Assembly: GCA_965249055.1 (NCBI GenBank)
Contig: CBDFKX010000002.1
Span: 2,957,800-3,021,799 of the forward strand
Source of the DNA: Candidatus Aldehydirespiratoraceae bacterium
Lineage (GTDB): Bacteria > Actinomycetota > Acidimicrobiia > Acidimicrobiales > Aldehydirespiratoraceae
Direction of reading: 5' to 3'
DNA: 64,000 nt
Part shown: positions 1,391 through 28,125 of the stretch, piece after piece
Layout: each line of letters starts with the position of its first letter
Numbering within the stretch: the stretch's first letter is position 1
Notes under the pieces: model-generated
Told to the model about the DNA's origin: nothing
The model's input: only the letters and a program-made list of their open reading frames with translations
Databases searched by the model: none
Translations under genes and position numbers: made by a program

Positions 1391-2857
1391 GTGTGCCACA
1401 GTTGGCGAGTGCCCAATACGAAAACCGCTCCGCTCCCCGATGGTCTCGTAGCCGTTGTCAAAAAGGACTGCCCGACCTGTGTCCTAGTGGCACCAGTCTT
1501 AGCCGATATGGCCGAACGCATTGGAGTCTCAGTCATCACCCAGGACGACCCGACCTTTCCCCAAAGCGCCGACTGGGTAACCCACGATGCCGACCTCGCC
1601 TTGTCATGGCACAACCAAATCGAGACAGTACCCACGCTGCTGCGAGTCGACGACGGTTCCGAAGCCGATCGCATCGTCGGTTGGTCTCGCCAGGCTTGGG
1701 AGGAGTTCACTGGGCTCAACGGTCTCGGAACCGACCTTCCCGATTGGAGACCCGGATGCGGCTCACTGAGTGTCGATCCCAACCTCAGCGATGAACTCGC
1801 CGTGCGCTTCTCAGGTTCAATACTGAAGAGTCGGCGAATCGAACTCGCCGAGTTGGAAGATGAAGTGGAAGCCATGTTCGACCGCGGGTTCAGTGATGGA
1901 ATGCCGGTCGTACCCCCAACCGAGGCGCGTGTGCTGAGAATGCTTGAAGGCACAAGTCGCTCGGCGGAGGAGGTGGTGGCCGTCATACCACCCGATCTGG
2001 TCGAATGCACCGTCGAGAAAGTGGCTATCAACGCAGTAATGGCCGGCTGCAAGCCCGAGTATCTCCCTGTGGTGCTGAGCGCGGTCGAAGCAGCCTGCAC
2101 CGACGAGTTCAACATGCACGGACTGTTGGCCACCACTATGCCGGTAGGTCCGATCCTGATCGTCAACGGACCCATCCGTCACGAAATTCACATGAACAGC
2201 GGCCTCAATCTATTGGGCCAAGGGAACCGCGCCAACAACACCATCGGCCGTGCTCTCCAGCTGGTTATTCGCAATATCGGTGGAGGCAAACCCGGCGGTG
2301 TCGACCGCGCCACGCAGGGCAGCCCCTCAAAGATCGGGTTGTGCTTCGCCGAGGACGAAGAGGGCAGCGCCTTCGACACCTTCGCCGAATCTCGCGGTTT
2401 CGACCGCAACGTCTCCACCGTCACTCTGTTCCCCGGGGAAGGCCCCCGACTGATGTTCGATCAGAAGTCGCGTTCGCCGGAATCGCTCACCAAGCACTTC
2501 GCCGAAATGCTGCGCGTCAACGTCAGCCCGAGAATAGTCATGTCGATGGAAACCGTGATCGTGATGAGTCCTGAACATATGGCCCGATACCGAGATGCCT
2601 CCTGGGACAGGGCCCGCTTTCTGGCAGAACTTGAAGCGCTGCTGATGATCGACGGCGACGACATAATTGCCGGCTCCGGCGGAATCGAAGAGGGTATGCC
2701 GACATTACTCTCGGGCCATCAGCTACCGAAGTTCCCGCCTGGAGGGATTCATGTTGTTCACGGAGGCAGCCATGCTGGGTTGTTCTCTTCGACCATCGCT
2801 GGTTGGGTGACCGGCGCAACCGGTAGCGTGACTGTCACAAAGGAGATCACTCGATGA
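1391..2857 (+). CDS. thioredoxin-fold domain fused to a ~370-aa domain of unknown function
   Basis: 488-aa ORF. The N-terminal ~105 aa has a CPTC redox motif and an ETVPT cis-Pro loop, as in thioredoxin-like folds. I cannot assign the remainder (AINAVMAGCKPEYLPVV, IVNGPI, GQGNRANNTIGRA). Its stop overlaps the next gene's start (ATGA at 2854-2857). Confidence 0.7.
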   Translation: MCHSWRVPNTKTAPLPDGLVAVVKKDCPTCVLVAPVLADMAERIGVSVITQDDPTFPQSADWVTHDADLALSWHNQIETVPTLLRVDDGSEADRIVGWSRQAWEEFTGLNGLGTDLPDWRPGCGSLSVDPNLSDELAVRFSGSILKSRRIELAELEDEVEAMFDRGFSDGMPVVPPTEARVLRMLEGTSRSAEEVVAVIPPDLVECTVEKVAINAVMAGCKPEYLPVVLSAVEAACTDEFNMHGLLATTMPVGPILIVNGPIRHEIHMNSGLNLLGQGNRANNTIGRALQLVIRNIGGGKPGGVDRATQGSPSKIGLCFAEDEEGSAFDTFAESRGFDRNVSTVTLFPGEGPRLMFDQKSRSPESLTKHFAEMLRVNVSPRIVMSMETVIVMSPEHMARYRDASWDRARFLAELEALLMIDGDDIIAGSGGIEEGMPTLLSGHQLPKFPPGGIHVVHGGSHAGLFSSTIAGWVTGATGSVTVTKEITR

Positions 2858-3372
2858 CTGTTGTTCTTGATCCCACCGCTGAGTTGCGGCCCGAAAAACG
2901 TGAGCGTGTCGCTAGACCCGAGTCTCTCAACGGACTCACGGTCGGACTACTCGACATCTCCAAACCCCGCGGAGATATTTTTCTCAACCGTGTCGAGGAA
3001 AAGCTGACCGGCCTCGGTGCCAACGTGAAACGCTTCAAAAAGCCGACGTTCACCAAACCAGCGCCGATCGATCTGCGCCATGAGATTGCCGTGTCCTGCG
3101 ACGCGGTGATCGAAGCGCTCGCCGATTGAGGTTCCTGCACGACGTGCAGTGTGCACGACATCAACGATCTTGAACGCCGCGGCATTCCAGGAGTGTTCGT
3201 TGCCACCGTTGAGTTCGCCGACGGTGCCGAGCAACAAAGCAAGAGCCTCGGAGGTGACATAGCCCACGTCTTGACCGAGCACCCCATCCAGGACCGCACC
3301 GACTCAGAGATGGTCGCTATCGCCGATCAAGCAATCGACGCCCTGTTGAGTTCGCTTACAGGCCCCGGTTAA
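2854..3372 (+). CDS. UGSC family selenoprotein (TGA at 3127-3129 read as selenocysteine)
   Basis: ORFs 2854..3129 and 3151..3372 share a frame (297 nt apart) and are separated by one TGA. Read-through gives 172 aa with ...AVIEALAD-U-GSCTTCSVHDINDLERRGIP..., the U-G-S-C motif that names the family. Confidence 0.8.
3135..3157 (+). promoter_or_regulatory. candidate bacterial SECIS hairpin(s)
   Basis: There are two overlapping perfect 6-bp hairpins, starting 6 and 14 nt after the UGA. They are CTGCAC-GAC-GTGCAG (3135-3149) and CGTGCA-GTG-TGCACG (3143-3157). Confidence 0.5.
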
Positions 3373-3377
3373 CCCCT

Positions 3378-3504
3378 CCAGCCAACAAGCCCCGCCAGCC
3401 AACAAGCCGCGCCGACCGGCCAGCCCCGCCGACCGGCCAGCCCCGCCGTAGCAGCGAAGCTAGGTACTGGCCAGCGAATTACGTGTACTGGCCAAAAACT
3501 ACGT
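3378..3504. repeat. three consecutive pairs of short tandem duplications in a convergent intergenic region
   Basis: CCAGCCAACAAGCC(C/G)CG x2 at 3378-3411. CCGACCGGCCAGCCCCG x2 at 3412-3445. GTACTGGCCA(GCGAAT/AAAAAC)TACGT x2 at 3464-3504. The last copy overlaps the xsc stop codon. Confidence 0.85.
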
Positions 3505-5265
3505 GTATTCGGCGTACTTCTTCAGGTGGCGGACCGGGCGGCTCAAAGCATCCTTACGGAACGGATCGCCGAGTTCTTTGGTGGTCATGACTTCGATCAC
3601 TGTGGTCTGCCGTTTGGTCATCTGATCGTCGATCGCCCGTTCTAGGGCCGGACCGACATCATCAAGCTGATCAACACGAACACCCTTCGCTCCCATCGCT
3701 TGAGCGATTTGCGCGTAGTTCTCCCCCGCTTCAAGTTCCCCGGCCACAAAACGGCGATCGTAGAAATCAACCTGGTTCTTCTTTTCGGCACCCCATTGGC
3801 GATTGTGGAACACCACCGCGGTGACCGGAATATCGTGGCGCACCGCGGTCATCACCTCAACCATGCTCATAGCCCAGGCACCATCGCCAGCGTACGCCAC
3901 CGCCGGACGATCATCAGCAGCCTTCTTGGCTCCAATAATGGTCGGCAGCGCATAGCCGCAGTTACCCCAACTCATGGCTGCCAAAAACGACCTGGGCTCT
4001 TCGAAGCGCAGGTAGCTGTTGGACACCGAGTTGATGTTGCCGATGTCGGTGGACACCATTACCCGAGCTGGCATGGCCCGCTCCAGTTCCCGCAACACCT
4101 GGCGTGGGTGCAGCCAACTGCCTTCTTCGGCCGCTGCTTCTTTGATCATGTCGATACTGAAGTCGTCGGTTTCTTCGGTCCAATCGTCGAGTTCGTCTTC
4201 CCACGCGGTCTTCTCAGAAAGCAGCGTCGACTCTCGCTCGGCACGGTTTTGGTCGGCCACCAGCGTACGTTGAGCCAGCCGCTCTGTCAGCGCCCCAGCA
4301 GCTGCACCGGCATCACCGCAAATCCCGACATCAATCTTTTTGACCAAGCCGAGCATCTTCGAATCAGCATCAACCTGGATGATCTTGGCCTCTGTCGGCC
4401 AATAGTCGAGGCCATGCTGAGGCAAGGTGCCAAAGGGCCCCAAACGGGTGCCGAGCGCCAGCACCACGTCAGCCCGTGCGATCAACTTCATCGCCGCCTT
4501 TGAGCCTTGGTAGCCGAGCGGTCCACACCACTGTGGGTGGCCGGCCGGAAACGAGTCGTTGTGCAGGTAGCTGTTGACCACCGGACAGCCGAGTCTTTCG
4601 GCCAAGGCGACCGTTGCGGCCATACCATCTCCGATCACCACTCCACCGCCGCTGATCATGACTGGGAACTGCGCGCTCGCCAAGAGGTCGGCCGCTTCGT
4701 TGAGTGTGCGCTCACCACCGGGTCCGCGATCGAGCCGCATGGGGGTTCCGATCTCCACATTGATGTCGCCATAGAAGCGGTCACGGGGGATGTTGAGTTG
4801 CGTTGGACCCATCTCCGATAGCGCCCGGTCGAAGCAACGAGCCGTGATCTCTGCCATTCGGTGTTCGTTGTTGATGTGCCCCTGATACTTGGTGAACTCC
4901 TCAAACATCGGAAGCTGATTGGCTTCTTGGAAGCCGCCGAGTCCCATCCCCATCGTGCCGGCTTCGGGGGTAACGATGACAACGGGACTGTGTGCCCAAA
5001 AGGCTGCCGCGATCGCGGTCACACAGTTGGAAATACCAGGGCCATTCTGCCCGATCACGACTCCGTGGCGGCCACTGACCCGGGCATACCCGTCTGCCAT
5101 GTGGGCTGCACCCTGTTCGTGAACCACCGGTACCAACTCAATACCTGCCGGCTCAAAAATGTCCATGGCGTCCATGAACGCGCTGCCCATGATGCCAAAG
5201 ACAGTGGTCACACCGTTGGCCACCATGGTTTCGACAAACGCTTCGCTGGGAGTCATCCGGGTCAT
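3499..5265 (-). CDS. xsc: sulfoacetaldehyde acetyltransferase (ThDP-dependent)
   Basis: 588 aa. ThDP motif GDGAWAMSMVEVMTAV...FHNRQWGAEKKN. The blocks LGYQGSKAAMKLIARADVVLALGTRLGPFGTLPQHGLDYWP and ELGDPFRKDA closely match my memory of Xsc sequences. A pta gene lies in the same cluster. Confidence 0.8.
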   Translation of the reverse strand: MTRMTPSEAFVETMVANGVTTVFGIMGSAFMDAMDIFEPAGIELVPVVHEQGAAHMADGYARVSGRHGVVIGQNGPGISNCVTAIAAAFWAHSPVVIVTPEAGTMGMGLGGFQEANQLPMFEEFTKYQGHINNEHRMAEITARCFDRALSEMGPTQLNIPRDRFYGDINVEIGTPMRLDRGPGGERTLNEAADLLASAQFPVMISGGGVVIGDGMAATVALAERLGCPVVNSYLHNDSFPAGHPQWCGPLGYQGSKAAMKLIARADVVLALGTRLGPFGTLPQHGLDYWPTEAKIIQVDADSKMLGLVKKIDVGICGDAGAAAGALTERLAQRTLVADQNRAERESTLLSEKTAWEDELDDWTEETDDFSIDMIKEAAAEEGSWLHPRQVLRELERAMPARVMVSTDIGNINSVSNSYLRFEEPRSFLAAMSWGNCGYALPTIIGAKKAADDRPAVAYAGDGAWAMSMVEVMTAVRHDIPVTAVVFHNRQWGAEKKNQVDFYDRRFVAGELEAGENYAQIAQAMGAKGVRVDQLDDVGPALERAIDDQMTKRQTTVIEVMTTKELGDPFRKDALSRPVRHLKKYAEYT

Positions 5266-5304
5266 GTTTCATCCTCCATTCCAGACCGTCGCAAGAGCCT
5301 ATAA

Positions 5305-5907
5305 CTAATCTGCAAGACTATCTAGCGCAGAATTTCGCTCAAGATGGCGGATCCCGGCAATCAAGAGTTCCAGTAGATGATCGAACGTGTCATCAAGGTC
5401 GTGTTCGTGCGGATGTCCGTCACCAGATTCAAGATGGGAAAACCCGTGGAATGAACTCCGTAACCCACGTGCCACATGTACACGCTCATCCTCGTCAATG
5501 CTGAAACTCCCCAGAGCTCGAGCAATGACCGCCACGATCCGTTCGACCGCTTCTTCGAGTTCAACATCACCCGCGCAGGGATATCGGTCGGTGGCGGCGT
5601 ACAAACCGGGGTGAGTCCGCACTACCTCCCGCCAAGCCCTCCCGATGGCTACGACTGCGTTCTCTCCCGATACACCGATGGCCGCCTCAGTGAGCGAGCT
5701 AGCGAGTTTGGCACGGCCTCTCAAAGCCAGCAGTTTGACAAGATCGTCGTACCCGTCGACATGTCTATACAGCGCCGGTTGACGAACGCCGAGTTCGTCG
5801 GCCACACGAGTGAGGGTGACCGCGTCAAACCCTTCTCTGTCTGCTATTTCTGAGGCGCATTCAATTACTTGCGCCGGGTCCAGAGTCCGCTTGGGCGATC
5901 CGCTCAT
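5305..5907 (-). CDS. TetR/AcrR family transcriptional regulator
   Basis: 200 aa with the N-terminal HTH TLTRVADELGVRQPALYRHV. Confidence 0.85.
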   Translation of the reverse strand: MSGSPKRTLDPAQVIECASEIADREGFDAVTLTRVADELGVRQPALYRHVDGYDDLVKLLALRGRAKLASSLTEAAIGVSGENAVVAIGRAWREVVRTHPGLYAATDRYPCAGDVELEEAVERIVAVIARALGSFSIDEDERVHVARGLRSSFHGFSHLESGDGHPHEHDLDDTFDHLLELLIAGIRHLERNSALDSLAD

Positions 5908-5931
5908 GCGTTAGAAGCTATCACCGTTACG

Positions 5932-6867
5932 TTAGAGCGGACGCAACGCCGAGGCTTGGATTGAAGCGATAACCGCCACGTTGACAATGTCGTCCTCCGA
6001 GCAGCCACGCGAAAGGTCATGCAACACGCCATCAAGACCCTGCAGCAACGGCCCGAAAGCAAGCGCTTGACCCAGACGTTCGGTGATCTTGTAGGCGATG
6101 TTGCCGGAGTCAAGATCTGGGAAGACGAACACATTGGCTCTGCCGGCAACTTCAGAGTCGGGAGCCTTGACATCGGCAACCGCGGGAAGCCAAGCGGCAT
6201 CAAACTGCAACTCACCATCAATCTTGAGATGCGGCGCAGCCTGCTGAGCAATCGCGGTAGCGCTCCGCACCTTTTCGACACGCGGGTGTTGCGCACTCCC
6301 CCTGGTTGAAAACGAGAGCATGGCGACACGAGGCTCCTCACCGCAAAGTTGAGCAAACGTAGCTGCACTCGAAATAGCAACGGAGGCCAATTGCTGATCG
6401 TCGGGATCTGGCAACACTGCACAGTCTCCGTAGACAATCGGCCGACCGTCAGGCAGCACAAAAAAGAAGCAGCTACTCAGCGCTTCAACTCCGGGCGCGA
6501 CCCCGAGCACTCGCAACCCGGCCCGCACCACATCCGCGCTGGCGCGGCTTGCTCCACCCACACACCCCGCAGCCCAGCCTGTCTTCACCAAGGCCGCAGA
6601 AATCACCAGTGGATCGTCAACATCGAGCCGACGACCAGCCCACGGTCCTGTGTTTGCAGCAGCCAGTTCGTCAACGAGGCGCTCCGCTGGGCCATGAGCA
6701 ATCTCGGCGAGCAAGCCGAAGTCCCTGCCCGCAACGAGTGCTTCGGTCAAACCCTGCGCATTGAGGCGATCCGCGGCGGCGATAGCTCGCGGATCATTTG
6801 CGTCGGCCAAGATGATGCGCTGCGGGTTCGCCCGAGCGCGGCTGTACCAATCGTCGAGAACGCTCAC
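5932..6867 (-). CDS. pta: phosphate acetyltransferase (short form)
   Basis: 311 aa with PTA_PTB-type blocks (YGDCAVLPDP, AMLSFSTRGSA, NVFVFPDLDSGNIAYK). Overlaps the upstream aminotransferase gene by 4 nt. Confidence 0.85.
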   Translation of the reverse strand: MSVLDDWYSRARANPQRIILADANDPRAIAAADRLNAQGLTEALVAGRDFGLLAEIAHGPAERLVDELAAANTGPWAGRRLDVDDPLVISAALVKTGWAAGCVGGASRASADVVRAGLRVLGVAPGVEALSSCFFFVLPDGRPIVYGDCAVLPDPDDQQLASVAISSAATFAQLCGEEPRVAMLSFSTRGSAQHPRVEKVRSATAIAQQAAPHLKIDGELQFDAAWLPAVADVKAPDSEVAGRANVFVFPDLDSGNIAYKITERLGQALAFGPLLQGLDGVLHDLSRGCSEDDIVNVAVIASIQASALRPL

Positions 6868-8282
6868 AGCCGGGCGTTCAGCCCTTCCCTCGCCAAGGGA
6901 TCAGCCGCTTCTCGGCCATGCGCCTTCAGCCAACCGCCCACGCGGTCGAGCACTTGGTCGACCCGCTTGAGCAGGTCGTCGATCACGGTGGCGTCTGCCA
7001 CCAACGGCGGTGCCACAGCCAACATGGCAGCACCTCTAGAGTCGGGCCGGACCAGAACGCGCGCCTCGCGCACAAAGCGTTCTAGAACTCCGCCCGGTAG
7101 TAATTCAGCGAACTCGTCGTCAGTAAGATCCGAACCGCTGCGGCGGTCACGCATCAACTCCACGGAATGGAAGTACCCGGCGCCCCGCACGTCTTTGACA
7201 CAACGATGGGATTCCATCAGCGCGCGCAAGCCGTTCTTGAGGCGGTCCTCGTTTGCCAGAACGCGGTCGAATACCTTTTCGTCGCGCATGGCGGTCATGT
7301 TGGCCACCGCTACCGCTGTGGCCACTGGGTGGCCGCCGAACGTGGCCCCGTGGACGAACATCGCAGCGGGCGAGTCCCACACCCGATCCACCAGCGAGTC
7401 CCGTACAAGCAAACCTCCCAGAGGCACGTATGCGCTGGTGACACCCTTGGCGAAGGTGATCATGTCCGGCACGACGCCATAACGCTCGCTGCCGAACCAG
7501 TGACCGAGGCGTCCGAACGAGTTGATCACCTCATCTGCGCAGAGCAGCACGCCGTAGGTGTCGCAGATGCGGCGCAGTTCTTGCCAATAGCCGTCGGGTG
7601 GGACCAGTGCTCCCCTGCCGTTCTGTACTGGTTCTGCAATCACCATGGCCACCGTCTCAGGGCCCTCGGCGAGGATCGCCTGCTCGACGGCTGTTACACA
7701 CGGCAGTTCTGAAGCAGGAACGCCCTCGGCAGAACAGCCGAGTGTGTTGTCTACGTGGCGCACAAACCCGGCGAGCATCGGCTCGAACGGATCGCGGAAG
7801 TTGGGAATGCCGGTCACGGTCAGCGCACCCAGGGTGGTGCCGTGATAGGCCCATCGACGTGCAATCACCTTTTGGCGACTCTCAGCGCCGTTCGCCAAGT
7901 GGTAACAACGAGCGAACTTGAGGGCGGATTCAACCGCTTCTGAGCCAGAGTTCACAAAGAACACTCGGTTGAGATCGGCGGGTGCCACCGACGCGATCAG
8001 CGACGACGCCTCGATGGACGAAGGGTGGGCGAAACTCCAGTTGGGGCTGAAAGCCAGTTTGTCCATCTGCTTGGCCGCAACCGCGGTCAGATCACTGCGA
8101 CCGTGGCCGAGGTTGGTGCAGAACAACCCGGAGAGCCCGTCCAGGTATTCGTTGCCCTCGGTGTCCCAGACGTAACAGCCTTCACCTCGTTCGATGACGA
8201 GCAGGTCGTCGCGTTGCCAAGCATCGCCACGCGTAAAATGCGGCACCAAGTGGTCCCGGGCCTTGGCTCTAATCTCGGTCAA
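6864..8282 (-). CDS. class-III (omega) aminotransferase, candidate taurine:pyruvate aminotransferase by context
   Basis: 472 aa with class-III blocks (VNSGSEAVESALKFAR, ADEVINSFGRLG, TFAKGVTSAYVPLG carrying the PLP Lys). TTG start preceded by GGGGGA. Substrate is inferred only from linkage to pta and xsc. Confidence 0.75.
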   Translation of the reverse strand: MTEIRAKARDHLVPHFTRGDAWQRDDLLVIERGEGCYVWDTEGNEYLDGLSGLFCTNLGHGRSDLTAVAAKQMDKLAFSPNWSFAHPSSIEASSLIASVAPADLNRVFFVNSGSEAVESALKFARCYHLANGAESRQKVIARRWAYHGTTLGALTVTGIPNFRDPFEPMLAGFVRHVDNTLGCSAEGVPASELPCVTAVEQAILAEGPETVAMVIAEPVQNGRGALVPPDGYWQELRRICDTYGVLLCADEVINSFGRLGHWFGSERYGVVPDMITFAKGVTSAYVPLGGLLVRDSLVDRVWDSPAAMFVHGATFGGHPVATAVAVANMTAMRDEKVFDRVLANEDRLKNGLRALMESHRCVKDVRGAGYFHSVELMRDRRSGSDLTDDEFAELLPGGVLERFVREARVLVRPDSRGAAMLAVAPPLVADATVIDDLLKRVDQVLDRVGGWLKAHGREAADPLAREGLNARL

Positions 8283-22876: not shown

Positions 22877-25800
22877 GTGATGCGGCGGATCGCTCCCATA
22901 GTGCTGGGCTTGGCCATCGCGATCGCAGTGGCGGGGGGTTGGCTGCTCGGCACTGACCGGGCCGCGGCGACAAGCCATCTGAGATTTGACCCGGCCCCGG
23001 CGGGCCTGGAGTGGACGGCGGGGTTCGCGAACTCCGATGTGCTGGCGGAGGGCACTGGGGGCACGGGCACGCTGTCGTACACGTTGCTGCAGAACGACGG
23101 GTCCGGCGGCACGCAGGCGCTGCCGACGGGGTTCAGGTTCGTTGGGGCAAACCGGAGGCTGTCGAGCACTACGGACGTGAGCACGGCCAACTCTCCGTAT
23201 TCGTTGGTGTACACGGTGACCGACGACAACCAGGTGTCGGCGACGGCGACGTTCACGGTGACGGTCAACGAGGCGCCGTTGGTTTCTCCGGGTGATTTGG
23301 GGTGGACAGCGAAGCATGCGAACTCCGATATGCTGCCTGCGGCGTCGGGGGGCACGGAGCCTTTGTCGTACACGTTGCTGGGGGAGCGCGACTCGACGCT
23401 GCCGACGGGGTTCTCGTTCGACGAGTCGGAGCGGAAGCTGACGAGCACTGATACTGTCGACACGGGCAACTATTCGTTGGTGTACACGGTGACCGACGAC
23501 AACGAGGCGTCGTATTCGGCGACGTTCAAGGTGACGGTGGCCGCGGCTGTGGAGCTGGTTTCTGATGATCCGGGTGATTTGGGGTGGACAGCGGGGCATG
23601 CGAACACGGCGGTGACGCTGCCTGCGGGCACTGGGGGCACGGGCACGCTGTCGTACTCGGTGGTGGAGTTCGGCACGGATGCGCTGCCGACGGGGTTCGT
23701 GTTCAACTCGTCGGATCGGAAGTTGTCGAGCACTACGGACGTGAGCACGGCCAACTCTCCGTATTCGTTGGTGTACACGGTGACCGACGACAACGAGGCG
23801 TCGTATTCGGCGGATTTCGATGTGACGGTCAACGAAGCTGTGTCGCTGGTTTCTGATGATCCGGGTGATTTGGGGTGGACAGCGGGGCATGCGAACACGG
23901 CGGTGACGCTGCCTGCGGGCACTGGGGGCACGGGCACGCTGTCGTACTCGGTGGTGGAGTTCGGCACGGATGCGCTGCCGACGGGGTTCGTGTTCAACTC
24001 GTCGGATCGGAAGTTGTCGAGCACTACGGACGTGAGCACGGCCAACTCTCCGTATTCGTTGGTGTACACGGTGACCGACGACAACGAGGCGTCGTATTCG
24101 GCGGATTTCGATGTGACGGTCAACGAAGCTGTGTCGCTGGTTTCTGATGATCCGGGTGATTTGGGGTGGACGGCGGGGCATGCGAACACGGCGGTGACGC
24201 TGCCTGCGGGCACTGGGGGCACGGGCACGCTGTCGTACACGTTGGTGGAGTTCGGCACGGATGCGGCTGCCGACGGGGTTCGTGTTCGACGAGTCGGATC
24301 GGGAGTTGTCGAGCACTACGGACTGTGAGCACGGCCGACTCTCCGTATTCGTTGGTGTACACGGTGACCGACGACAACGAGGCGTCGTATTCGGCGACGT
24401 TCAAGGTGACGGTGGCCGCGGCTGTGTCGCTGGTTTCTGATGATCCGGGTGATTTGGGGTGGACAGCGGGGCATGCGAACACGGCGGTGACGTTGCCTGC
24501 GGGCACTGGGGGCACGGGCACGCTGTCGTACTCGTTGAAGTGGAGTTCGGCACGGATGCGCTGCCGACGGGGTTCGTGTTCAACGGAGTCGGATCGGAAG
24601 TTGTCGAGCACTACGGACTGTGAGCACGGCCAACTCTCCGTATTCGTTGGTGTACACGGTGACCGACGACAACGAGGCGTCGTATTCGGCGGATTTCGAC
24701 GGTGACGGTCAACGAAGCTGTGTCGCTGGTTTCTGATGTTCCGGGTGATTTGGGGTGGACGGCGGGGCATGCGAACACGCCGGTGACGTTGCCTGCGGGC
24801 GTCTGGGGGCACGGGCACGCTGTCGTACACGTTGGTGGAGTTCGGCACGGATGGGGCTGCCGACGGGGTTCGTGTTCGACGAGTCGTCGCGGGAGTTGTC
24901 GAGCACTACGGACTGTGAGCACGGCCGACTCTCCGTATTCGTTGGTGTACACGGTGACCGACGACAACGAGGCGTCGTATTCGGCGACGTTCAAGGTGAC
25001 GGTGGCCGCGGCTGTGTCGCTGGTTTCTGATGATCCGGGTGATTTGGGGTGGACAGCGGGGCATGCGAACACGCCGGTGACGTTGCCTGCGGGCGTCTGG
25101 GGGCACGGGCACGCTGTCGTACTCGTTGAAGTGGAGTTCGGCACGGGTGCTGCTGCCGACGGGGTTCGTGTTCAACGGAGTCGGATCGGCAGTTGTCGAG
25201 CACTACGGACTGTGAGCACGCCAACTCTCCGTATTCGTTGGTGTACACGGTGACAGACGACAACGAGGCGTCGTATTCGGCGGATTTCGCGGTGACGGTC
25301 AACGAAGCTGTGTCGCTGGTTTCTGATGTTCCGGGTGATTTGGGGTGGACGGCGGGGCATGCGAACACGCCGGTGACGCTGCCTGCGGGCGTCTGGGGGC
25401 ACGGGCACGCTGTCGTACACGTTGGTGGAGTTCGGCACGGATGGGGCTGCCGACGGGGTTCGTGTTCGACGAGTCGTCGCGGGAGTTGTCGAGCACTACG
25501 GACTGTGAGCACGGCCGACTCTCCGTATTCGTTGGTGTACACGGTGACCGACGACAACGAGGCGTCGTATTCGGCGACGTTCAAGGTGACGGTGCAACGT
25601 GGCTGTGTCGCTGGTTTCTGATGATCCGGGTGATTTGGGGTGGACAGCGGGGCATGCGAACACGCCGGTGACGTTGCCTGAGGCGCACGGGGGGCACGGC
25701 GCACTTTGTCGTATTCGGTGGTGGAGTTGTCGGCACGGGTCGCTGCTGCCGACAGGTTTGGTGTTCACGGAGTCGTCGCAGCAGTTGTCGAGCACGACGG

Positions 25801-28125
25801 ACTGTGAGTCGCGGGTTCTCATACTTTGCGCTATTCAGTTGGATGTACAGTGACCGACGATCAACCGTCGTATTCGGCGGATTTCGCGGTGACGGTCAAC
25901 GAAGCTGTGTCGCTGGTTTCGGATCCGGCTGGCTTGAGGTGGTCGGCAGAGAACTGCGAACACGCCGGTGACGTTGCCTGCCGGCACGGGGGGCACGGGC
26001 ACGCTGGTCGTACTCGTTGGTGGAGGACGGCACGTCGATGGGCTGCCGACGGGGTTCGTGTTCGACGAGTCGTCGGATCGGGAGCTGTCGAGCACTACGG
26101 ACTGTGAGCACGGCCGACTCTCCGTATTCGTTGGTGTACACGGTGAAAGACGTCAACGAGGCGTCGTATTCGGCGACGTTCAAGGTGACGGTGCAACGTG
26201 GCTGTGTCGCTGGTTTCTGATGATCCGGGTGATTTGGGGTGGACAGCGGGGCATGCGAACACGCCGGTGACGTTGCCTGAGGGCACGGGGGGCACGGGCA
26301 CGCTGTCGTACTCGTTGAAGTTGTCTGACGGGTGCTGCTGCCGACGGGGTTCGTGTTCACGGAGTCGTCGGCGGCAGTTGTCGAGCACTACGGACTGTGA
26401 GTCGCGGGTTCTCATACTCTCCGCTATTCGTTGGTGTACACGGTGACCGACGATCAACGAGGCGTCGTATTCGGCGGATTTCGCGGTGACGGTCAACGAA
26501 GCTGTGTCGCTGGTTTCTGATGTTCCGGGTGATTTGGGGTGGACAGCGGAGCATGCGAACACGCCGGTGACGCTGCCTGCGGGCGTCTGGGGGCACGGGC
26601 ACGCTGTCGTACACGTGGTGGAGTTCGGCACGGATCGGGGCTGCCGACGGGGTTCGTCGTTCGACGAGTCGTCGGATCGGGAGCTGTCGAGCACTACGGA
26701 CTGTGAGCACGGCCGACTCTCCGTATTCGTTGGTGTACACGGTGAAAGACGTCAACGAGGCGTCGTATTCGGCGACGTTCACGGTGACGGTCAACTGAAG
26801 CTGTGTCGCAGTCGTTCGTTTCTGAGCCAGATCCGGGTGGTTTGGAGTGGACAGCGGGGCATGCGAACACGCCGGTGACGCTGCCTGAGGGTCTGGGGGC
26901 ACGGGCACGCTGTCGTATTCGTTGAAGTTGTCTGACGGGTGCTGCTGCCGACGGAGTTCGTGTTCACGGAGTCGTCGAGCGGCAGTTGTCGAGCACGACG
27001 GACTGTGGTCGCGGGTCTCCGTATTCGTTGGTGTACACGGTGACAGACGACAACGAGGCGTCGTATCGGCGGATTTCGCGGTGACGGTGAGGGAGGTGGC
27101 GGAGGTGGCGGAGGTTTTCTGGTGGTGGGTTTTCTGGTCGGCCGGTTCGGTTGCCTGTCTATGTCCCGGATCCGGGTGACTTGGTGTGGACGGCGGACGG
27201 CATGAATACGTCAGTAGTGTTGCCTGAGGGGGCGACTGCCCCGACGACACCGACAGTAGACAACGCGAGTAGGTCAGTCGTGCTGCCTGAGGGTTCGGGG
27301 GGCGTGGGCGCGTTGTCGTACTCGTTGACGTTGATTAACAGGTGGGCGCTGCCGTCGGGGTTCGAGTTCGCGTCCACACGGATGTTGACTGCGTCCGCAC
27401 AGATATTCTCGAGCATGCGCGCAATAGAGGCGGTCTCTCATACATTGCGTTATACGGTGACTGATGCTAGGCGCGTGTCAGCGTCACGGGACTTCACGGC
27501 GACGCTGGTGTCGTCGATCCCTGATGTAGGTCGTGATGCGCCGTATCGGCCGGCGGTGGTGTGGATGGTCGCCAACGGTATTGCCAGGGGATGCTCGCAA
27601 GATCGGTTCTGTCCTGACGACCAGTTGACGCGTGGCGAGTTCGTGACGTTCTTGTGGCGCGCGGTGGGCAGGCCCACGCCAGCTTATGCTGGTTCGGATG
27701 TCTACTCTGATGTTGTGGAGGGCTCGTATTCGGACTTGGCCATCGGTTGGGCAGCAGCCACAGGCCTGACCTTGGGTTGCTCTTCGGGACAGCCCGATGA
27801 TCCAGACTGGCGGTTCTGTCCCGCCGACAAAGTTACCCGGGCTCAGACCGCTGCATTCTTGTACCGCTTCCTGGGAGTCAAGCTTCGGCGCCCGCAGCCG
27901 TTGCCTCTTGAGGATGTGAGTCTTTACAGCTACTACGCAAACGCTGTCGCGTGGCTGCACGTCAACAACATCATGGCCCCCTGCGAACCAGACCGGTTCT
28001 GCCCGAATCAGAACCCGAGCCGGGCCGACTTGGCCACCTTCATGCACAGAATCGCCGCCACTCCGTCAAGCTGGGCCACCGACCGCGCCCCCCTGCCCCA
28101 ACTAGCACTGACCAACTCAAACTAA
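22877..28125 (+). pseudogene. giant cell-surface repeat protein gene (signal/TM N-terminus, ~15 Ig-like 97-aa repeats, three SLH-like C-terminal modules); frame broken repeatedly between ~24258 and ~27150
   Basis: The intact 5' ORF 22877..24328 begins MMRRIAPIVLGLAIAIAVAGGWLL and carries five repeats. The repeat is DLGWTAGHANTAVTLPAGTGGTGTLSYSVVEFGTDALPTGFVFNSSDRKLSSTTDVSTANSPYSLVYTVTDDNEASYSADFDVTVNEAVSLVSDDPG. The same repeat continues to ~27150 but hops between all three frames. The 3' ORF 27151..28125 has a last divergent repeat plus the SLH-like modules. The total length of 5249 nt is not a multiple of 3. Confidence 0.7.
23003..27177 (+). repeat. tandem array of 14 units of about 291 bp (plus a divergent 15th), with a ~590-bp two-unit higher-order repeat from 24451
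   Basis: GATTTGGGGTGGAC anchors (or variants) lie at 23003, 23294, 23576, 23867, 24158, 24451, 24747, 25041, 25337, 25632, 25931, 26231, 26531, 26839 and 27178. Units at 23576 and 23867 look identical: alternative-frame ORFs 23584..23856 and 23875..24147 give identical peptides. Confidence 0.9.

Follow-up and report, generated by a model that had tools for sequence, protein, structure and literature searches.

Organization of the UGSC locus

The window, that is, the whole 64-kb stretch of DNA that was analyzed, contains at positions 2854-3372 of the forward strand a complete coding sequence for a predicted UGSC-family selenoprotein, which lies in a single reading frame whose sole interruption is a TGA at 3127-3129. 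The frame opens with an ATG at 2854, located 8 nt downstream of the Shine-Dalgarno sequence AAGGAG (2840-2845), and ends with a TAA stop at 3370-3372. An ORF listing divides this frame into two parts, 2854-3129 (91 aa) and 3151-3372 (73 aa). The original prediction described these two ORFs as sharing one frame with only the TGA between them, and as giving on read-through a 172-aa protein with the sequence ...EALAD-U-GSCTTCSVHD..., in which the UGA takes the first position of the motif; both descriptions were confirmed. The UGA would encode residue 92 of the read-through product, position 1 of a U-G-S-C-x-x-C motif, and the peptide across this selenocysteine (Sec, U) site reads EALAD-U-GSCTTCSVHDINDLER.

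A gene for a partner protein of approximately 482 aa lies immediately upstream (1391-2857, forward strand; start probably at about 1409). Its TGA stop overlaps the ATG of the UGSC gene (ATGA), indicating that the two genes are translationally coupled. Further upstream, two forward-strand ORFs (3-809 and 799-1308) had no NCBIfam match. On the other side, the UGSC stop codon is directly followed by two tandem repeats with 17-nt units (2.4 and 2.6 copies), and a 20-nt repeat occupies 3464-3507; all of these repeats (3373-3507) lie in the gap between the UGSC gene and the convergent xsc gene.

We also considered the genetic code of the window. TGA is the stop codon of 18 of the 27 genes identified there, and an internal TGA was found in no other gene. 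Because TGA thus serves as an ordinary stop in this DNA, a reassigned genetic code was rejected.

Family membership of the read-through product

To place the read-through product in a family, we scored it against curated profile models, substituting C for U. The protein matched NCBIfam NF041046 ('UGSC family (seleno)protein') with 151 bits (cutoff 125), with residues 27-168 aligned to model positions 2-146 of 147, and Pfam PF24696 with 137 bits (cutoff 25), with residues 4-169 aligned to model positions 2-171 of 172. Both matches run across the UGA and span either side of it. The protein is therefore a full-length member of the family, scoring above the curated cutoffs of both models.

A database search with the UGSC protein returned 3961 homologues, which were of two kinds. 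The full-length homologues (approximately 175 aa, 45-66% identity) carry Cys at the column of residue 92, the position at which the original prediction called for Cys or Sec. The short homologues, which are many (approximately 94 aa, 73-88% identity), all terminate exactly at ...EALAD, because gene callers stop at the Sec codon. An exact look-up of the 91-aa fragment of the window found nothing on record. At the conserved column, the motif reads U-G-S-C-T-T-C in the window and C-G-S-C-T-S-C in the homologues, and C95, G96, S97 and C98 are invariant in the homologue alignment (A4).

A UGSC-containing protein has been reported from the selenoproteomes of the Sargasso Sea and GOS (PMC2398784) and from Hyphomonas neptunium (PMC1976440), and UGSC appears together with NF041046 in a review of prokaryotic selenoproteomes from 2026 (PMC13188914). 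UGSC is thus an established Sec/Cys family (PMC2398784, PMC13188914). The window protein shares with the known family the full-length HMM match, the alignment of Sec to the Cys of homologues, a length of about 170 aa, an aquatic or environmental actinobacterial lineage, and an uncharacterised, presumed redox function; nothing essential differs between them.

A weak local similarity to another selenoprotein family was detected at the Sec site. Over approximately 40 residues, the UGSC protein (78-120) aligned to the models of GrdB/GrdF (glycine/sarcosine/betaine reductase selenoprotein B; TIGR01917, TIGR01918; model positions 333-374) with 22 bits (E = 6e-5), whereas the cutoff of that family is 602 bits and UGSC is a 172-aa single domain without the other GrdB regions. 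No grd or prd genes were found near the UGSC gene. Membership in the GrdB/PrdB selenoprotein B family was rejected on the score.

Conservation of the UGA and of the downstream frame

To assess the conservation of the UGA, we compared the window with 85 related loci (86 sequences in total), drawn from metagenomes and from 80 species-level genomes. All 80 genomes are Acidimicrobiia-type MAGs (best match, 92% identity), and the loci are not copies of one assembly, with protein identities of 65-92%. The results revealed TGA at the Sec codon in 86 of 86 loci, with TAA or TAG in none, whereas the terminal stops of the same 86 genes were divided among TGA (43), TAG (32) and TAA (11). In every locus, 78-84 open codons followed the TGA in frame, and the entropy at the three codon positions downstream of the UGA was 0.77/0.64/1.48, indicating that this region is translated and under purifying selection. 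Gene callers split every orthologous locus into a protein of 94-96 aa and a protein of 73 aa, both PF24696-positive, which bears out the expectation in the original prediction that ordinary ORF callers would split or truncate the gene. That prediction would have been undermined by orthologues that end at the equivalent position and have a separate gene downstream; the orthologues instead keep the TGA and the downstream frame.

Single-base variants at the Sec codon were recorded in metagenomes, namely TGT (Cys) in L086 (1229) and TGG (Trp) in L087 (603), and one protein (P0004) carried Arg at the Sec position. Genuine variation, inactive alleles and errors are all possible sources of the Trp and Arg forms.

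We weighed these data against a reading in which the UGA is a true stop, so that the locus would be a pseudogene, or a UGSC gene of the Cys type that acquired the TGA by nonsense mutation or through an error of sequencing. A single base separates TGT or TGC from TGA, and the TGT and TGG variants demonstrate that such changes exist. However, a chance stop is hardly compatible with the same TGA, never TAA or TAG, at this codon in all of these independent loci across 80 species, nor with the integrity of the downstream codons, and the purifying selection acting on them, in every locus, and we regard this reading as exceedingly improbable.

Similarly, the locus could hold two independent genes, one encoding a 91-aa protein that ends at the TGA and the other a 73-aa protein that starts at GTG 3151. 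This is how gene callers annotate every orthologous locus, and GTG 3151 could serve as a start codon. However, no Shine-Dalgarno sequence precedes GTG 3151 in the window, and this codon encodes the Val that is invariant in the S-V-H-D motif. Moreover, the conserved GSCxxCS is encoded by the 21 nt that separate the two ORFs, a stretch that runs on without a break in the Cys homologues, and the family HMMs bridge the junction. An arrangement of two genes is thus scarcely credible, and a single read-through gene remains the preferred reading.

A conserved and covarying hairpin downstream of the UGA

The original prediction placed two overlapping hairpins where a bacterial SECIS element should lie, and both can be formed by the sequence. 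The first, CTGCAC-GAC-GTGCAG (3135-3149), and the second, CGTGCA-GTG-TGCACG (3143-3157, forward strand), are palindromes contained within the codons TGC ACG ACG TGC AGT GTG CAC, and the first represents another way of pairing the same 3' arm. In the second hairpin, the stem is formed by 3143-3148 and 3152-3157 and the G-U-G loop by 3149-3151, which corresponds to positions +23 to +25 from the U of the UGA; a G3141-C3159 pair lengthens the stem beyond an A·A mismatch.

We examined codon use around the UGA in 80 unique sequences. Synonymous sites were nearly frozen from codon -1 to codon +10, with a third-position entropy of 0.36 over these codons compared with 1.25-1.48 in the flanks. The same codon was used in 80 of 80 sequences for Asp -1 (GAT), Cys +6 (TGC), Ser +7 (AGT), Val +8 (GTG) and Asp +10 (GAC), whereas several codons are in use for the same amino acids elsewhere in the UGSC gene.

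The pairing pattern distinguished the two hairpins. All six core stem pairs of the second hairpin were formed in 72 of 72 distinct sequences, and the G-U-G loop was invariant (72/72). The pair between columns 24 and 36 (codon +5 position 3 and codon +9 position 3) was GC in 59 sequences, AU in 8 and GU in 5, with no A·C combination; both changes are synonymous, so that the exchange of G-C for A-U is a doubly synonymous compensatory one. Where column 24 holds A, as in 8 sequences, the first hairpin acquires a C·A mismatch, with no compensation. In addition, the pair probability in a 60-mer of the window favoured the second hairpin (0.67) over the first (0.05). Because the change at column 24 is compensated in the second hairpin and mismatched in the first, and because the pair probabilities agree, the second hairpin (3143-3157) is the selected structure, and the first (3135-3149) is probably not. 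Thus, of the two hairpins proposed originally, one was upheld as a conserved, covarying apical stem-loop in the orthologous loci and the other was set aside. The freezing of synonymous sites together with compensation across 80 species indicates that a specific RNA signal is maintained here.

This selection was visible only in the comparative data, because the fold of the window itself is at chance level: in single-sequence folds of 3127-3186 and 3100-3220, the folding energy of the hairpin region was no better than that of dinucleotide shuffles (z = +1.3 to +1.5). No SECIS match was obtained from Rfam, either at the gathering threshold over the whole window or at E values up to 10 over 3060-3260, in a database with few bacterial SECIS models.

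The Cys forms served as a control, which comprises few sequences and in which differences in the peptide are a confounding factor. The nearest of these forms, L086 (TGT), retains the hairpin, as expected after a recent one-base conversion, whereas the distant Cys forms L088 and L089 use other codons and the hairpin is absent. Protein constraint also contributes to the conservation of the hairpin, since its codons encode the conserved C-S-V-H-D and L086 keeps it.

Beyond the apical stem-loop, an extended SECIS stem-loop (3126-3173, forward strand) was predicted, in which a lower helix (3126-3133/3166-3173) would surround the UGA. In this helix, the U of Asp codon -1 (3124-3126) is predicted to pair with the invariant A3173 (+47). 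Conservation of the lower helices is partial, some of their pairs being open in as many as 34 of 72 sequences, and for this reason we infer, rather than assert, that a lower helix enclosing the UGA is part of the SECIS element. The fixation of GAT at codon -1 in 80 of 80 sequences occurs in spite of a GC content of about 60% in the lineage, and may alternatively reflect an effect of codon context on UGA decoding.

Comparison with the bacterial SECIS consensus and with E. coli fdhF

The published bacterial SECIS (bSECIS) consensus describes an apical loop of 3-9 nt on an upper stem of 4-16 bp, a G in the first two loop positions that is usually followed by G or U, a distance of 16-37 nt from the UGA to the apical loop, and a minimum free energy (MFE) of -7.5 kcal/mol or lower (PMC13188914, Fig. 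2A). A bSECIS prediction over 3127-3180 had been proposed as a check, and the element agreed with the consensus on all four counts. The UGSC hairpin of the window has a 3-nt loop (GUG) on a stem of 6 bp, the majority of orthologues having 8 bp, and the loop starts with G followed by U. Its first nucleotide (3149) is separated from the UGA (3127-3129) by 19 nt. The MFE was -10.7 kcal/mol for the 47-mer 3127-3173 and -13.8 kcal/mol for the window 60-mer, with -7.4 kcal/mol for the apical hairpin alone.

We further compared the element with the SECIS of E. coli fdhF, the sequence of which was verified in more than 5,400 E. coli genomes. In both, a stem-loop lies just 3' of the UGA within the coding region, with the UGA inside a lower helix (predicted in the window). 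The loop G23-U24 of fdhF, counted from the U of the UGA, is in the same register as G23-U24-G25 of the window, and the 3' arm U26-G27-C28-A29-C30 is identical in the two elements. G23 and U24 are the SelB contacts in E. coli fdhF. The elements differ in the loop, which is a 4-nt GGUC in fdhF and a 3-nt GUG in the window, and in the bulged U17 of fdhF, in place of which the window has an A·A mismatch beneath the stem. Apart from the shared features, the two sequences are unrelated.

Selenocysteine machinery and decoding of the UGA

To locate the Sec machinery, we scanned 30 ORFs of the 64-kb window with NCBIfam models together with 795 kb of related flanks, and found no selA, selB or selD in either. 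ARAGORN detected no tRNA-Sec in the window or in 90 loci, and the window has no tRNA of any kind. In Actinomarina, which belongs to another order of Acidimicrobiia, selC, selA and selD were reported to be universal and a divergent selB to be present (preprint, bioRxiv 10.64898/2026.04.03.716425). This report makes Sec use in Acidimicrobiia plausible and speaks for the class rather than for this particular genome.

These results bear on a further reading, in which the UGA is read through without Sec, by a near-cognate Trp or Cys tRNA, or mostly terminates translation, with the hairpin as a relic or as a device that slows the release factor. The scan of the window and related flanks, in which the Sec machinery was not found, and the TGG variant L087 would both fit such a reading. 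However, it leaves the G-U of the loop standing exactly in the SelB register of fdhF, and it does not sit well with synonymous sites that are frozen over 80 species with compensation, with the established standing of UGSC as a Sec/Cys family, or with TGA as an efficient ordinary stop in this DNA. We therefore consider decoding without Sec improbable. The original inference of a true selenoprotein is supported by the family match, the conserved TGA, the coding selection downstream and the covarying hairpin, and on this sequence evidence 2854-3372 is very likely one UGSC-family selenoprotein gene, pending the Sec machinery.

By analogy with E. coli fdhF, decoding would proceed as follows. As the ribosome arrives at the UGA (3127-3129), the downstream mRNA would fold so that the apical loop of the stem-loop presents G23-U24. 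SelB carrying Sec-tRNA(Sec) would then bind the loop and deliver selenocysteine, and translation would run on for 80 more codons.

Upstream partner and gene neighborhood

To characterize the partner, we examined its linkage and its domains. The partner adjoins the UGSC gene in no fewer than 57 loci, some of which carry the Cys form of UGSC, and belongs to a family of more than 8000 homologues with no Pfam domain. Profile and fold searches revealed that its first ~100 residues form a thioredoxin fold in which a CxxC, reading CPTC in the window, is invariant; a PDB sequence-profile search with this N-terminus gave only a weak thioredoxin match. Foldseek found no convincing solved-structure match for the C-terminal ~300 residues, and a likeness of this domain to fumarate hydratase was rejected (TM about 0.2). 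The C-terminal domain contains several invariant Cys residues (C123 in PGCGSLSVDP, C220 and C236).

On the reverse strand, a cluster of the taurine/sulfoacetaldehyde type (3499-8282), comprising genes for Xsc, a TetR regulator, a phosphotransacetylase and an aminotransferase, converges on the UGSC gene. A functional link between UGSC and these genes was rejected because the xsc-tetR-pta-aminotransferase context is not conserved in orthologous loci. Elsewhere in the window, a 291-bp tandem repeat array (23107-27088; 13.5 copies, 85% matches) coincides with a raised GC content (0.62-0.66), a strongly positive GC skew and stacked, overlapping long ORFs on both strands. This array may encode a repeat protein, as 291 bp corresponds to 97 codons.

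Predicted fold and proposed function

To assess the fold of UGSC, we examined an AF2 model of the closest Cys-form protein (pLDDT 89.9). The model is a five-stranded beta-alpha flavodoxin-like sandwich in which the Sec/Cys position sits at the N-terminus of a helix. Its best structure matches in the PDB were lumazine synthase, RecJ DHH and CheY-like domains (TM <=0.5), with no thioredoxin among them, and a PDB sequence-profile search with UGSC returned nothing. A thioredoxin-like fold was suggested for UGSC in 2008 (PMC2398784); the flavodoxin-like model of the Cys form argues against that assignment.

Taken together, the motif, the fold and the gene linkage suggest that UGSC is most likely a selenol/thiol redox centre that works with the thioredoxin domain of the partner. 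Within a flavodoxin-like alpha/beta domain, the U-G-S-C-x-x-C centre would occupy the N-terminal end of a helix, and electron exchange would take place between this centre and the thioredoxin-like domain, with its CxxC, of the coupled upstream protein. A more specific proposal, which we advance tentatively and which is rather less likely to hold than to fail, is that UGSC and the ~482-aa thioredoxin-fusion partner form a dedicated two-component selenol/thiol redox enzyme that is widespread in aquatic Actinomycetota, with a flavodoxin-like UGSC domain bearing a GrdB-like U-x-x-C-x-x-C and with a C-terminal domain of the partner that might bind the substrate.

Implications

Since about 2005-2008, UGSC has been known as a family that occurs in Sec and Cys forms and is abundant in aquatic metagenomes, and the present locus is a further ordinary instance. 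The locus should be annotated as one 172-aa selenoprotein and not as two fragments, and the same annotation error occurs in every metagenome call that we examined. By implication, this Acidimicrobiia organism would use selenocysteine. The additions made here are modest, namely a well-supported SECIS model for the clade in the fdhF register, a conserved thioredoxin-fusion partner and a predicted non-thioredoxin fold, and they could guide the first biochemistry on an uncharacterised, very abundant selenoprotein.
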